A stretch of 6,643 bases of DNA from a virus (IMGVR_UViG_2778261696_000002:1-6643); one strand, 5' to 3'; numbered from the stretch's first letter, positions 1,088-6,643 are shown. Notes: a model not told the origin generated them from the sequence alone. Translations and numbers: made by a program.

Positions 1088-2299
1088 TTATATTTTCCTC
1101 AAGGTTGATGTGTTGATACCTTTTATCAATTCATAACGGGGAAAACCTACGGAACACTCATTTAATATGTTCGAATGAGTTGTTACGATGGTTTGAAATG
1201 AAGTCTCAATGGAATTCAATCTTTCAATGTATGGTTTAAAAGATTCCTTTGATAAAAAGGTTTCATTCATTTCTATAAAAAGTAGTGTCGGTGTGTATTT
1301 GGAACGCTCATTTAATGATGCGATTATAACATCCAATAGCACTCTAGTTTTTTCACTTCCAGATAAACACTCGAAAGGCAAATAAGAATCATTACCTTGT
1401 ATCATGCAATAGATATCATGAATATCTCGCTCTTTTTCATCTTCACTATCATCATCCTGTTCCAGCTCTTCCTGAGTAGCAAATCTGATTGATTTAAGTA
1501 TGCCTTTTTTGTTTCTGCATACATAATCAAAAAGACTCTCAAGTAGCACTGGCGATATATTTATGAACTCAGCAAAAAAGTTAGATGTTTTATTATATTT
1601 TTTCTTTGAGTAATTAAAATCAAAAAAATAGCATGCAAAAGGAAAAGGACTTGAGGTAATGTCAAGAGAATCAACTTTATAGGAAATCCTTCCGCTATTT
1701 ACACTCACTTCAATTAAGTGTGGCTCTGGCGTGTGCAAATAAATTTCAATATTGAGCTTTTCACAATTAACCCAGCGCTCAAGTCTATTTATTGCACTGA
1801 CACTTGATAACCACTCGCATATTGCTGTTTTCCCTGCGCCATTACTATCACTCTCAATAATTGTTATTTTTGCAAAGTCGATGCTTATTGAATCTTGAAA
1901 TAAAGGACTATCAACTATTGATAGTTTTGATATCCAATGTAATTTATTGACGATCCTTCCCTGGTGATGTTTAATGAATTCCTCATGATATTTTTTCCAA
2001 CTAATTAGTTGTGATGCGGTAAATCCTGCTCCATTATTTGTATCAACTAACCTTGCGTGTACCTTACATAGCCAAATTCCATTCTCAGGGCTTTTTAACT
2101 GTTCTTCTGTTAGCCCACCTTGCCCTCTGGGGCCATTTTTAGCTGCACTATAAATATGTGATGCCTCACCGATGCTGGATGTCTCATCCTCTTTTTCACC
2201 TGGGCCAATAGTTATTATTGAACATTGAGGATGGCTACATTGGTATCCTGCTCTCCCAGCAAGTACATTCTTTGTTCTTTCTGTGAATTCTACTCTCAT
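1088..2299 (-). CDS. Hypothetical fusion protein: N-terminal HNH-type nuclease domain plus C-terminal ABC-type (AAA_21/SMC-like) P-loop ATPase; candidate anti-phage defence protein
   Basis: Uninterrupted 403-codon ORF with AGGAG Shine-Dalgarno (reverse complement of 2304-2308) 4 nt before the ATG. HNH motifs: C21-x4-C26, E45-A-S-H48-I, N55-G-P-R, N73-G-I-W-L-C78-x2-H81. ATPase motifs: beta-strand ITIIES then P-loop S-N-G-A-G-K157-T, signature-like L312-S-G-S-E, Walker B-like T-L-L-F-I-E343, H-loop T-T-H375-S. Spot counts give about 30-35% GC against about 55% in the flanking phage genes. Function is inferred from motifs, not from a database hit. Confidence 0.8.
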   Translation of the reverse strand: MRVEFTERTKNVLAGRAGYQCSHPQCSIITIGPGEKEDETSSIGEASHIYSAAKNGPRGQGGLTEEQLKSPENGIWLCKVHARLVDTNNGAGFTASQLISWKKYHEEFIKHHQGRIVNKLHWISKLSIVDSPLFQDSISIDFAKITIIESDSNGAGKTAICEWLSSVSAINRLERWVNCEKLNIEIYLHTPEPHLIEVSVNSGRISYKVDSLDITSSPFPFACYFFDFNYSKKKYNKTSNFFAEFINISPVLLESLFDYVCRNKKGILKSIRFATQEELEQDDDSEDEKERDIHDIYCMIQGNDSYLPFECLSGSEKTRVLLDVIIASLNERSKYTPTLLFIEMNETFLSKESFKPYIERLNSIETSFQTIVTTHSNILNECSVGFPRYELIKGINTSTLRKI

Positions 2300-2363: not shown

Positions 2364-2569
2364 GCATGGGAAAACATAGTTTATTCAATTGAACCAACTT
2401 AAAGGTAACTTGCGCTGCATACAAGTATGCATCCTGTTAACAATTTTACAGGCCTCATATACCAGAATTCCTTGAATACGGCATCATTTTAGGTCGATTG
2501 CCGTATGCCGTGCTTCAGACTACCACCCCTCGCAACATCATCCAATATCATACTTGTTACGTCCGCTAT

Positions 2570-2611
2570 TGGCACAGAGCGGACTGTCAGATTAGGCTTT
2601 ACTCTGTGCCA
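2570..2611. repeat. Perfect 10-bp inverted repeat (TGGCACAGAG ... CTCTGTGCCA) with a 22-nt spacer, just downstream of the G stop
   Basis: Read directly: 2570-2579 tggcacagag and 2602-2611 ctctgtgcca are exact reverse complements. No T-tract follows on either strand, so it is not a canonical intrinsic terminator. It lies at the junction between the GC-rich G 3' end and the AT-rich cargo region. Confidence 0.6.
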
Positions 2612-2645
2612 TAGATATGTAAGCTCACACCAGAGTTCATATAAC

Positions 2646-3173
2646 TTATTGCGGCATTTCCGGCCATTCAGGATTTGCAGGATCCACACGGCTGACCAGA
2701 ACACTGTAGCGTTCCCATGCTTCCAGTCGGCTACGCTCCTCATCTGTTGCCATGTTCAGCCTGACAGCGCGCTCCAGTGGCAAAATCACGGATTCAGCAT
2801 CTGCAAGAAGTCTGGCTTTCCGGTTTTCTGCCTGCTGCTGCAATTCCTCTGCCGTATAAATGCGTTTAATCACTGTACCGTCCTTAAACATCCAGTTCCC
2901 TGAAATGTCCGCCCGTCGGTTAGCAGTAATATCCGCCACTTCAACAACACTTAATCCATCCGGTCTGATAGCTGTCACATCCTTTTCCACATAGCGGATG
3001 ATATTATCTTTGTCGTACGCTATTTTTAGCGTGTCATCAGCAAAATACTTTTGTTCTTCGTACCAGTTCTTACCATCTTCTGAAAAAAACCAGACAACAT
3101 CAAAGTCTTTTGTCAATTGATATTGTTCAACCGTTTTTGGATTACCCGCCGTAATATTTTTTAAATGCTGCAT
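2646..3173 (-). CDS. G: Tail fibre assembly protein (Tfa/chaperone)
   Basis: 175-aa ORF starting [22 protein letters not shown] and ending ...[41 protein letters not shown], matching the P2 gpG/Tfa family from memory. The ATG at 3173-3171 lies 3 nt after the H stop. Located directly downstream of the tail fibre gene. Confidence 0.9.
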
Positions 3174-3176
3174 AAA

Positions 3177-5306
3177 TTATACCTGCGCCACGTTATACCA
3201 TGTCCCGTTAATGTATTTCTGAACCGGTCTGTAATATACACCACCAATGTTATCGGCAGAGTTTGAGCCGGTATCCTGAACAATAATGCCGGAATATACA
3301 CACCCGGACGGTGCCTGATGTGTCCATGTCATGCCATTGTTCGCAGGTTTGTATGTGGCAGCACCACCAAGCCGGATATCCCGGACATAGCGGGAATCAA
3401 AGTTACCGTAATCCGAGGGATTAACACGCCCCGTAATATTTATGGTTTTATTACTTTGAATGCTACCGGAGACAAAGCGCATAACATGGACGTTATTAGC
3501 ATAAACATCCAGATTACCGTCGCCATTTTGTTTAAAGCCCGTGTCATTATCACCCAAAACAATCGAGTTACCGCCAAGAGCACTGGATGTACCGATGCCC
3601 AGTGCACCATTCAATTGACCTCCAGATAATGATAACGCCCCAACATCAGCAGCAGTCGGTTTAATGTGCGAACTGTAAATTACATATACAGTTCCATCTG
3701 TCAGGCCTGTTGGTTTATTCGCTGTATAAGTTGGTGATGTATGAATCGTTACGCTGGCGTTACTGGTATAATCCCACTGAATATTAACACCTGTGGCGTA
3801 ATTACCTATTTCAACATAAACATCATAGGTATCACCGGATGTATTCACCCATGCAAAATTAGTAAATCCAACCGAGGTCCGTCGCCATAACGCACCAGTA
3901 AGACCTTTTGGATTTCCATTTCCCGCACGAAGAACAAGTTCAGATATACCAGCCTGCATAGGGGAGTTAACATTATATCCGGCACCACCAATCAGACTTA
4001 TGTAAACCACGGAACTGGCCTGTGGCATGGTTACAGTTGCCAGCCTGAACCATCCTGTACCACCACTAAAAGACATGGTTGTTGAATTTGTTGCTCCAAT
4101 ATTGCGCAGGAATAATCTTTTATCAGGAATATCCGCGCCATTTTGATCTTTCTGAAGACGTTTTTCAGCATTGTCATAGGCAGACTTCACCGCTTTTGGT
4201 GTTGCGGCCAGCGTTTCCGAATCACTGTTGGTGGCGCTACTGAGCTGGACAAGACCTTTTCGCGCTGTGGTGGCGTCCTGTGCGGTATATTTCCCGTTAG
4301 CAAGGTCATACGCTGTCTTAACCGCCTTTGGCGTTGCAGCCAGCGTTTCAGAATCGCTGTTTGTGGCGCTACTGAGCTGGACAAGACCTTTTCGCGCTGT
4401 GGTGGCATCCTGTGCGGTATATTTCCCGTTAGCGAGGTCATATGCTGCCTTTACCGCCTTTGGCGTTGCCGCAAGCGTTTCAGAATCACTGTTGGTGGCG
4501 CTACTGAGCTGGACAAGACCTTTTCGCGCTGTGGTGGCATCCTGTGCAGTGTATTTCCCGTTAGCAAGGTCATATGCTGCTTTTACCGCTTTTGGTGTTG
4601 CGGCGAGCGTTTCAGACGTGCTGTTGGTGGCACTACTGAGCTGGACAAGACCTTTTCGCGCTGTGGTAGCGTCCTGTGCGGTATATTTCCCGTTAGCCAG
4701 GTCATATGCGGCCTTAACCGCTTTCGGCGTTGCAGCCAGTGTTTCAGACGTGCTGTTGGTCGCACTGCTTAACTGAGTAAAACCTTTTGCGGTCAGCGAG
4801 GCGTCCGGGTGACGTCGTGACTGTTCATGTTCTGCAATTTTGTCATCAACGTAATCCTGCGTCGCCATCACCGTTGTGGTGTCAATGGTCAGCTCCACTG
4901 AGGTCACACTGCTGACGATGATGACCATACGGCAGGTCTGCGAACGCCCTGAGCCTTCGGCAAGAGCTGGCTTATAACTTTCGGCCATGTTCGCCACGGC
5001 AATTAACGTTCCAGCATCATCGTACAGGCCAAGCTCACGCATCCAGAAACCGCCCACCTCCGGCGGAATAACCAGCTCTGCGATAATATAATTACTGTTT
5101 CGTTTGTCCTGGCTGATTTTGTTCAGCGCATGTCGCCAGACTTCGTGGATAAGCCCGGTCTGTCCGGCATCCGGGACAGGCAATTTACCACCGCCATCCC
5201 CGACGGCCATCGTGGTAATGTTGATCTTCCGCCCTCCCGGCGCGGTTGCCGCTGCCAGCTTTGCTGCACCGGCAGTGGTGATAACGGTTCTGAATTTTGT
5301 GCTCAT
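3177..5306 (-). CDS. H: Tail fibre protein with five tandem phage-tail-fibre repeats and a distal receptor-binding region
   Basis: 709-aa ORF. N-terminus MSTKFRTVITTAGAAKLAAATAPGG is typical of P2 gpH-type fibres. GAGGA ribosome-binding site precedes the ATG at 5306-5304. Contains repeated units TAQDATTARKGLVQLSSATNS(T/D)SETLAATPKAVKAAYDLANGKY. The C-terminal third is Gly/Asn/Thr-rich, as in fibre tips. Confidence 0.9.
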   Translation of the reverse strand: MSTKFRTVITTAGAAKLAAATAPGGRKINITTMAVGDGGGKLPVPDAGQTGLIHEVWRHALNKISQDKRNSNYIIAELVIPPEVGGFWMRELGLYDDAGTLIAVANMAESYKPALAEGSGRSQTCRMVIIVSSVTSVELTIDTTTVMATQDYVDDKIAEHEQSRRHPDASLTAKGFTQLSSATNSTSETLAATPKAVKAAYDLANGKYTAQDATTARKGLVQLSSATNSTSETLAATPKAVKAAYDLANGKYTAQDATTARKGLVQLSSATNSDSETLAATPKAVKAAYDLANGKYTAQDATTARKGLVQLSSATNSDSETLAATPKAVKTAYDLANGKYTAQDATTARKGLVQLSSATNSDSETLAATPKAVKSAYDNAEKRLQKDQNGADIPDKRLFLRNIGATNSTTMSFSGGTGWFRLATVTMPQASSVVYISLIGGAGYNVNSPMQAGISELVLRAGNGNPKGLTGALWRRTSVGFTNFAWVNTSGDTYDVYVEIGNYATGVNIQWDYTSNASVTIHTSPTYTANKPTGLTDGTVYVIYSSHIKPTAADVGALSLSGGQLNGALGIGTSSALGGNSIVLGDNDTGFKQNGDGNLDVYANNVHVMRFVSGSIQSNKTINITGRVNPSDYGNFDSRYVRDIRLGGAATYKPANNGMTWTHQAPSGCVYSGIIVQDTGSNSADNIGGVYYRPVQKYINGTWYNVAQV
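4176..4793 (-). repeat. In-frame tandem repeat, 132-bp period (44 aa), about 4.7 copies, inside gene H
   Basis: The string tgagctggacaagacc recurs at 4241, 4373 and 4505, and as tgagctggacaagacc again at 4637, exactly 132 bp apart. The fifth (N-proximal, 4765-4793) copy keeps the protein sequence but uses different codons. Only a few substitutions separate the units (for example T/D and A/T/S in the protein). Confidence 0.85.
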
Positions 5307-5316
5307 TATTCCTCAC

Positions 5317-5847
5317 TTATCCGGGGTAAACCGTAATTACATCGCCGTCGTAAGCCACACAACCGGCGAACAGGTAGCCGGGAATGTCCCGGGTAATGTT
5401 CAGGCCAATAAGGTGGCGGCTTGCAGGTTTGGCATCGGCAATCAGCCGTTCCATTTCCTGATACATTGCCTCCGTGATGCCGCTTTCCAGTACACCAATA
5501 TCAAGCCGGAAGGTGCCTGGCGGGTCACTGTTTTCCCACCACTCCGTCACGTTGATGAGATAGCCGAGCGGCTCCACCACACGCCGGATTGCGCCGATAG
5601 TGCCTTTATGACAGTGGATGAAATAGGCATCGCGAATAACGGCGCGTTTGGTCGCTTCCGGCCACTTTTCATCCCACCTGTCGACCGAAAACGCCCACGC
5701 CAGCCACGGCAGCAGATTTCCCGGGCAGGTGTCCGGGTTCCACAGTTCACGAATACTGACCGGCGTTTTTTCAATTTCCGCACAGGCTTTTGCGGCAGCA
5801 ATTTCAAGCGGTGATGAGCCGGTCGGCAGCAGGCGCGAATCACTCAT
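5317..5847 (-). CDS. I: Baseplate assembly protein
   Basis: 176-aa ORF MSDSRLLPTGSSPLEIAAAKACAEIEK..., the same length and N-terminus as P2 gpI from memory. Its ATG lies inside ATGAGTGA, overlapping the stop of J. Its stop is 10 nt before the H ATG. Confidence 0.9.
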   Translation of the reverse strand: MSDSRLLPTGSSPLEIAAAKACAEIEKTPVSIRELWNPDTCPGNLLPWLAWAFSVDRWDEKWPEATKRAVIRDAYFIHCHKGTIGAIRRVVEPLGYLINVTEWWENSDPPGTFRLDIGVLESGITEAMYQEMERLIADAKPASRHLIGLNITRDIPGYLFAGCVAYDGDVITVYPG

Positions 5848-6643
5848 CCGAGCCTCCGGTCACGACGCGGTATTCGGTACAGAAAGACGCCTGCGTACTG
5901 TTGAGCACAATGTCGGCCAGTGGTGCGGCCAGCTCGACACGCTGCACGCCTTCCACATGCAAAGCGGCATAAATGGCAGACAGACGGATGTCGCGCCCCA
6001 GCCGGTGCTGCGCCGTGATGTACGCTTCCAGTTTTTTCACGGCAGCAGCGCGGATGGGTTCGCTTTCGGGACCAGGGTAAAGGTAAAGCGTGGCGTTTAT
6101 CTGGTATTCAACAATGGCGGCAGACTGCACGGTCACGCGGTCGGCCACCGGCCTGACGTCCTCGCCATTAAGGGCGTTACGCACCACGGCCAGCAGGTCT
6201 TCGGATGCCACACCGTTATTTTCACGTGACAGCACAGAGATGGTGACGCAGGCCGGAGACAGACTGGTGACAGAAATATCCGCGACACGCCCGTCGGCAC
6301 TGCGACCATGATACTGATAGGCCCCCACCGACCCGGCGACGCTTAAACCTTCAAACGCCTGCTGAATACGCAGACGATAATCAGTATCAGATTCCATCAC
6401 TGCCGGTGTCGGCGGGATGGTCGAATCGTCTGCCGGGGTGATAATCAGGCGTGTGGTGTTGTAATTGGCACCAATCACATCAAGGTCATTACCGGCGGCA
6501 CAGGCCAGCATTACCGCCCGTGCTGCCTCATTCACACGCTGACGCCAGATAAGCTCACGATAAGCATTTTCCTCCAGCAGTTTGACGAGAGGCTCGGATT
6601 CCAGCGTCAGGGTACGGGCGACCGCCTCCTGCTGGTCTTCCGG
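5840..6643 (-). CDS. J: Baseplate assembly protein J, C-terminal 267 codons (5' end beyond window end)
   Basis: The reading frame is open from the window edge (6643) to the TGA at 5842-5840. The track starts it at an internal Met (6535), but the frame continues upstream. Sequence ...NEAARAVMLACAAGNDLDVIGANY... matches P2 gpJ from memory. P2 J is about 302 aa, so about 35 N-terminal codons are off-window. Confidence 0.88.
   Translation of the reverse strand, partial: PEDQQEAVARTLTLESEPLVKLLEENAYRELIWRQRVNEAARAVMLACAAGNDLDVIGANYNTTRLIITPADDSTIPPTPAVMESDTDYRLRIQQAFEGLSVAGSVGAYQYHGRSADGRVADISVTSLSPACVTISVLSRENNGVASEDLLAVVRNALNGEDVRPVADRVTVQSAAIVEYQINATLYLYPGPESEPIRAAAVKKLEAYITAQHRLGRDIRLSAIYAALHVEGVQRVELAAPLADIVLNSTQASFCTEYRVVTGGSDE

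Follow-up and report, generated by a model that had tools for sequence, protein, structure and literature searches.

In a P2-like prophage of Escherichia coli, the end of the tail fibre that recognises the receptor and the N-terminal part of the assembly chaperone G, which binds the fibre, very probably form an exchangeable cassette, in which the fibre tip and the N-terminal domain of G move together because this domain has to fit the tip. The prophage is represented here by a stretch of 6,643 nucleotides of viral DNA (IMGVR_UViG_2778261696_000002:1-6643, hereafter the window), which corresponds to its tail region and carries FI, a cargo gene, G, H, I and J in this order on the minus strand; all sizeable open reading frames (ORFs) with a family assignment are on that strand. 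Baseplate_J, Tail_P2_I, H and Caudo_TAP are arranged as in the P2 late operon, i.e., H comes after J and I and before G, and G lies directly downstream of H (H, stop codon included, ends at 3177 and the start codon of G begins at 3173, with a gap of three bases). The fibre would be sectional, with an N-terminal collar domain and a repeat shaft from the P2 backbone, and a distal shaft and a tip drawn from a pool common to Mu-like, P1-like and other phages. An earlier note on this DNA had proposed that an AT-shifted stretch covering distal H and proximal G is an exchanged host-range cassette, and our results support this proposal: when the C-terminal part of H and the N-terminal part of G were searched separately from the rest of each protein, the best-hit lineages differed, as the note had predicted, and identity along the two genes is sharply uneven.

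Segmental identity of the fibre and its chaperone

We compared the window with seven phages by identity profiles per 100 base pairs (bp), completed by explicit mismatch lists, and with nine comparators by a table of protein segments. The two genes and their segments, numbered in window positions and in amino acids (aa), are as follows.

3177-5306, minus strand: gene H, P2-type tail fibre, 709 aa (ORF and Pfam; RefSeq name 'tail fiber protein')
4797-5306, minus strand: H aa 1-170, baseplate-proximal tail-collar domain (identity to Peduovirus backbones)
4173-4760, minus strand: tandem array of 132-bp units (44 aa, ATPKAVK motif; Tandem Repeats Finder: period 132, 4.5 copies, 90% matches)
3663-4154, minus strand: H aa ~385-548, shaft module common to Mu-like and P1-like fibres (DNA match to vB_YpM_5)
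3462-3662, minus strand: H aa ~549-615, common to Mu-like and P22H1-type fibres (aa identity)
2878-3461, minus strand: 584-bp perfect block, H aa 616-709 and G aa 1-98 (zero mismatches to Peduovirus P22H1 and NC_070906)
2646-3173, minus strand: gene G, tail fibre assembly chaperone, 175 aa (Pfam Caudo_TAP, PF02413, 1.5e-34)
2646-2877, minus strand: G aa 99-175, conserved C-terminal part (aa identity)

The proximal part of H follows the backbone. Pfam assigns Phage_tail_fib (PF12571) to aa 1-151 (3e-58) and Phage_fiber_2 (PF03406) to five repeat stretches (6e-101). H aa 1-170 are 97-99% identical at the protein level to pro147, 12474III, fiAA91-ss and Wphi, and 98% identical to P2 across the 81 aa of P2 H available, but just 84% identical to P22H1; no match was found in the Mu-like phages compared, and a tblastn search with this segment returned P2-like and other tail-collar myoviruses only. 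The same division is seen over 4437-6643, which runs from the portion of J in the window through I and the H N-terminus into most of the repeats, and which is 96-97% identical to pro147, Wphi, 12474III and fiAA91-ss, against just 71-89% for P22H1 and NC_070906 (71-82% for the H N-terminus of P22H1 at the DNA level). The repeat array is 78-99% identical to that of P2-like relatives, and copies of the ATPKAVK/Phage_fiber_2 motif number five here, one in P22H1, two in pro147 and in Wphi, three in fiAA91-ss and four in 12474III. Fibre length would change with this copy number. The motif is also present in Mu S, directly before the boundary of the G segment. Long plus-strand ORFs at 4143-4776 overlie the array with a matching periodicity, and are probably not genes.

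Beyond the array, the relationships of H change. The stretch 3367-4154 is 93.4% identical at the DNA level to Yersinia phage vB_YpM_5, a Muvirus, in one arm of an invertible segment adjoining hin, and H aa 391-548 are matched by vB_YpM_5 alone among the nine comparators (94% aa identity). H aa ~549-615 are shared more widely, with 97% aa identity to vB_YpM_5 and 96% to P22H1, the latter with a DNA divergence of 11.9%. Searched with tblastn, the distal 331 aa of H have their best match in Muvirus (83% over the full length), followed by P2-like phages over the last half only and, at about 40% identity, by T-even gp37, FelixO1-like and P1-like fibres.

Further downstream, the closest relatives are again P2-like, but they are not those of the backbone. 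P22H1 and NC_070906 share 96% identity with positions 2573-3662, which comprise G together with the last 162 codons of H; within this stretch, the block 2878-3461 has no mismatch over 584 bp, and both phages have an H tip and a G aa 1-98 identical (100%) to those of the window. According to the mismatch list against P22H1, the flanks of the block diverge by 5.6% and 11.9%, and, with 41 mismatches among 1090 positions, a mismatch-free run of 584 bp has a probability of about 1e-12. From these alignments, 2878-3461 is the smallest putatively co-transferred specificity unit observed in this analysis. Against non-cognate fibres, the tip (aa 616-709) falls to 43-57% aa identity and, against non-cognate relatives, G aa 1-98 fall to 67-73%, whereas G aa 99-175 keep 78-86% against these relatives and 78-96% against all nine comparators; the last 40 codons of G are 86-93% identical in DNA to six distant G/U genes. 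Across the phage collection, tblastn identities of G aa 1-98 are bimodal (22 records reach at least 90%, 82 lie at 60-80% and the 80-90% interval is empty), and those of G aa 99-175 form a continuous distribution with no gap.

G thus has the two-part pattern, with a variable N-part and a conserved C-part, that is expected of the Mu U / P2 G / lambda Tfa type. It matches Mu U (PDB 5YVQ_B) over its full length (residues 1-175, E 8.8e-84), the N-parts being 67% and the C-parts 79% identical. H aa 624-708 align with the Mu S tip (5YVQ_A residues 424-503, E 4e-17) and also with 9cuy_c, named 'Short tail fiber' by its depositor. PMC9608196, citing North et al. 2019, assigns fibre binding to the non-conserved N-terminal domain of TfaMu, and trimerisation to its conserved C-terminal helical domain; given these roles, the tip and the G N-domain would be inherited as a unit, and the G C-domain would be common to all. 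TfaMu remains on the fibre tip and may contact the same lipopolysaccharide (LPS) receptor (PMC10579305). By analogy, G presumably binds the H tip and would be needed for its folding, as known for Mu (PMC9608196). By homology to P2 H and to Mu S tips, H would be a trimeric fibre binding a cell-surface receptor, which is LPS for P2. Since the tip has just 44-57% identity to any receptor-characterised fibre, we only infer that H, like P2 and Mu, probably uses a variant of the LPS core.

The distribution of the segments in E. coli was surveyed in 5426 complete genomes, a genome being counted when at least 80% of the segment was covered.

Whole window: 9 genomes
H N-terminus (4797-5306): 636 genomes; plasmid places 0 of 1454, all chromosomal
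Middle module (3663-4154): 227 genomes; plasmid places 140 of 264
Tip core (2878-3461): 353 genomes; plasmid places 37 of 1410

The segments assort independently across E. coli genomes. The plasmids with the middle module are 90-115 kilobases (kb) long and carry phage lysis and fibre genes, and one of the matches adjoins darA; these plasmids are probably P1-like phage-plasmids, a label that is ours and does not come from annotation. In one of them, the phage-plasmid p2017-03-3CC_3 (~96 kb; L011 3011-8153), a fibre gene of 1474 aa contains the middle module at 96.9% identity, and is adjoined by a truncated tfa and a truncated recombinase gene, which suggests a decayed invertible segment.

On these profiles, the cassette has breakpoints near 4154-4180, 3662, 3461 and 2878, and is made of several nested modules. 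The earlier note had taken fibre tip and chaperone to be swapped as one unit; this holds for the tip with G aa 1-98, but not for the cassette as a whole. The breakpoints are resolved to a few bases, with one of them inside G, and the tip travels with the chaperone N-part. It is possible, though we consider it doubtful, that the perfect 584-bp block is a natural minimal specificity unit moving between diverged P2-like prophages, with its recombination end fixed inside G at the boundary between the fibre-binding and oligomerisation domains. If this were true, and if the boundary recurred in many independent exchanges, it would give a nature-derived cutting rule for retargeting P2-type particles and tailocins, and selection would keep the G C-terminal coding region conserved partly as a recombination arm.

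Base composition of the cassette slot

The AT shift reported in the earlier note across distal H and proximal G was recovered by a two-breakpoint likelihood scan over 2501-6643, blind to the coordinates of that note. The scan places a low-GC block at 2856-4180 (42.9% GC against 55.7% outside, log-likelihood ratio 29.7), and none of 200 shuffles in 30-nucleotide blocks matched the observed score. Over 2880-4170, GC is 43.1%, and it rises to 56.3% in the structural genes on either side (chi-square 65, p 7e-16). The breaks fall inside both genes, as had been noticed: the upper one within H at the end of the 132-bp tandem array (4173), and the lower one within G around codons 75-105. The spot values of the note were less exact than its pattern. 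The 33% given for 3060-3120 agrees with our 34.4%, and the 40-45% given for 3180-3500 was slightly low (46.7% measured); the flanks are indeed richer in GC, but the 57% given for both corresponds to 54.5% in the 5' part of H (4171-5306) and to 52.1% in the 3' part of G (2646-2879). GC at third codon positions is shifted as well, with 0.36 at H aa 379-709 against 0.55 at aa 1-378, and 0.40 at G aa 1-98 against 0.48 at aa 99-175; the AT shift is therefore more than an effect of amino-acid composition.

Several points weigh against the reading of an exchanged cassette. The same AT shift is found in six of six P2-like relatives, whatever the cassette they carry: in pro147, 12474III, Wphi, fiAA91-ss, P22H1 and NC_070906, the GC of distal H is 0.46-0.49, that of G aa 1-98 is 0.38-0.40 and that of G aa 99-175 is 0.51-0.53. 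Moreover, the conservation of G is graded and not cleanly two-state, since identity to distant G/U genes is 83% over codons 1-15, 47% over 61-75, 70-73% over 106-135 and 86-93% over 136-175. The single-sequence AlphaFold model of G is poor (mean predicted local distance difference test score 43.7), with moderate confidence only in a helical hairpin at ~aa 108-161, and does not fix the domain boundary. Donor and recipient are indistinguishable, so that the direction of transfer cannot be told, and the recombination mechanism, the contact between H and G and the receptor are deduced from sequence.

Because all six relatives share the AT shift, composition marks the cassette slot and not a recent swap, and we dropped it as a sign of the latter. 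The lower GC characterises the shared pool of cassettes and does not date the acquisition by this phage; the GC of the Mu-like invertible segment is 0.43-0.44. The evidence for exchange is the discordant identity profile, and composition alone shows no swap in this phage.

The composition shared by every P2-like relative, regardless of cassette, is also what would be expected under vertical descent only, in which the AT shift and the divergence would come from protein-level constraint and from fast local evolution of the fibre end; fibre tips are, in addition, subject to diversifying selection. We consider this explanation extremely improbable. It does not account for a 584-bp perfect identity, within 96% over 1090 bp, to a phage whose H N-terminus is 71-82% identical in DNA, nor for a 93% DNA match to a phage of another genus, Muvirus; synonymous sites are shifted too, and the segments reside on different types of replicon. 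These alignments exclude purely vertical descent, since the phages matched at 100% and at 93% have a far more diverged backbone or come from a different genus.

Exchange of the distal fibre would most likely proceed by homologous recombination between co-resident phages or prophages. The left homology arm would likely be the Phage_fiber_2 repeat array in H, and the right arm likely the region coding for the G C-terminal domain with the sequence just downstream (2559-2877). The outcome would be a new receptor specificity, likely for an LPS core variant.

Invertible segments as a possible source

A fixed cassette could, on the other hand, be what is left of an invertible host-range switch such as the Mu G segment or the P1 C segment, with one arm captured or frozen after the loss of the invertase and of the second arm. 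Several observations point in this direction. The stretch 3367-4154 is 93% identical to one arm of the vB_YpM_5 invertible segment adjoining hin, and the homology of the window H to this phage stops 27 bp short of its gix site. In vB_YpM_5, the sequence TTCCTGCAAACCGAGGTTTTAGATAA (L005 2969-2994), which we take to resemble the Mu gix crossover site, adjoins hin; the variable arm of that phage therefore starts about nine codons upstream of the transition to Mu-type sequence in the P2-type H. A prophage in the chromosome of E. coli RM14723 (L012 1815-6677) has the P2-type order V-W-J-I-fibre and, after it, tfa, a tfa' in inverted orientation, another fibre arm and a recombinase gene; it matches window 3663-4154 at 88.8%. 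This prophage is apparently P2-like and equipped with an invertible host-range segment, and its two tfa genes, second arm and recombinase would suit such an origin for the middle module.

The window itself argues the other way. At best, it matches the Mu-like gix 26-mer with 11 mismatches, and shuffled sequence does as well (8-11); nothing was found at 4150-4215, which rules out a vestigial gix at the junction between P2-type and Mu-type sequence. No serine invertase is present among the window ORFs or in the annotated prophage of strain EC12, and no second, oppositely oriented pair of fibre tip and tfa was found in the window or in that prophage; a single G is followed by a cargo ORF of 34.5% GC unrelated to fibres. 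The locus is not an invertible-segment system of the Mu G / P1 C / Hin-Gin-Cin type, none of the three defining features tested having been found. Moreover, the tip is 55% and G aa 1-98 are 70-73% identical to Mu-like arms, so that at most the middle module would be of such origin. We therefore give little credence to a frozen arm, and prefer the exchange of the tip and G N-domain by recombination.

Gene context and comparison with known systems

A P2-like prophage found in 9 complete E. coli genomes matches the full window with 99.8% identity; the copy in strain EC12 adjoins yegQ and has the complete P2 late gene set. Peduovirus genomes align to about 60-64% of the window, with 92-94% identity. 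The other genes of the window are the following.

to ~770, minus strand: FI, end of tail sheath gene (ORF call)
1088-2299, minus strand: cargo ORF, 403 aa (ORF call)
5317-5847, minus strand: gene I (Tail_P2_I)
5840-6535, minus strand: gene J, start codon as listed (Baseplate_J)

The true start of J is probably upstream of the listed one, its homologues being 909 bp long. Between G and FI, where P2 has fun(Z), lies a cargo island at 987-2558 with 34.5% GC. Its ORF bears the RefSeq name 'HNH endonuclease' and matches PADLOC PDC-M68A / HNH-effector at aa 2-122 (3.6e-22), with faint matches to GajA/PtuA-type ATPases at aa ~300-384. Pfam gave no match to this ORF, and the NCBIfam scan gave none to H, G or the cargo ORF. 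The cargo at this slot differs each time among relatives (fun(Z), orf44, a metal-binding protein, a SMEK protein, orf20 and a Sll1717-type ATPase), and the slot is a known P2 hotspot; the ORF is likely a candidate gene for anti-phage defence. The EC12 prophage has further cargo slots outside the window (L008; 33182-36248 and 22816-23601), with a pair named 'SIR2 family anti-phage-associated protein' and 'ATP-binding protein' adjoining the portal gene, and a hypothetical gene on the opposite strand, placed between those for the baseplate and for virion morphogenesis.

According to PMC9594776, which cites Haggard-Ljungquist et al. 1992 (cited in PMC10579305 as well), it was in P2 H and G that fibre genes were originally seen to pass horizontally between unrelated phages. 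The locus resembles P2 gpH/gpG in its J-I-H-G order, its Phage_fiber_2 repeat shaft and its G aa 99-175 (83% identical), as well as in the association of a backbone-specific N-terminus with a horizontally exchanged C-terminus. It differs from P2 in H aa 391-548, which have no match there, and in the tip and G aa 1-98, which are only 44% and 68% identical; receptor specificity is therefore probably different. It also departs from the Wphi and pro147 types, with five repeat units against two.

With Mu S/U (PDB 5YVQ), the locus shares the chaperone logic of a variable N-part and a conserved C-part, but its N-terminal anchor is of the P2 type and not Mu Sc, and its tip is 49-55% identical to Mu and Mu-like tips. 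Unlike in the Mu G segment, no gix, no Gin/Hin invertase and no second arm were found here. Closest at the distal end are the Peduovirus alleles of P22H1, P24E6b and NC_070906, which have G and the last 162 aa of H in common with it at 96% DNA identity, with the perfect 584-bp core. Their H, however, is 919 aa long, with one repeat unit and a distal part of 721 aa that lacks the Mu-like module, and their H N-terminus, I and J are just 71-89% identical in DNA.

The breakpoints may be of modest practical use as fusion points for engineering P2-type phages, transducing particles and tailocins; the understanding of phage fibre evolution is unchanged. In conclusion, this is known phage mosaicism, as in P2 H/G, Mu S/U and P1 S/U, structurally understood via Mu S/U and with nothing new in kind. 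What is new is the allele, which combines five repeats, a Mu/P1-type shaft module and a P22H1-type tip and G N-domain on a backbone of the pro147/12474 type.

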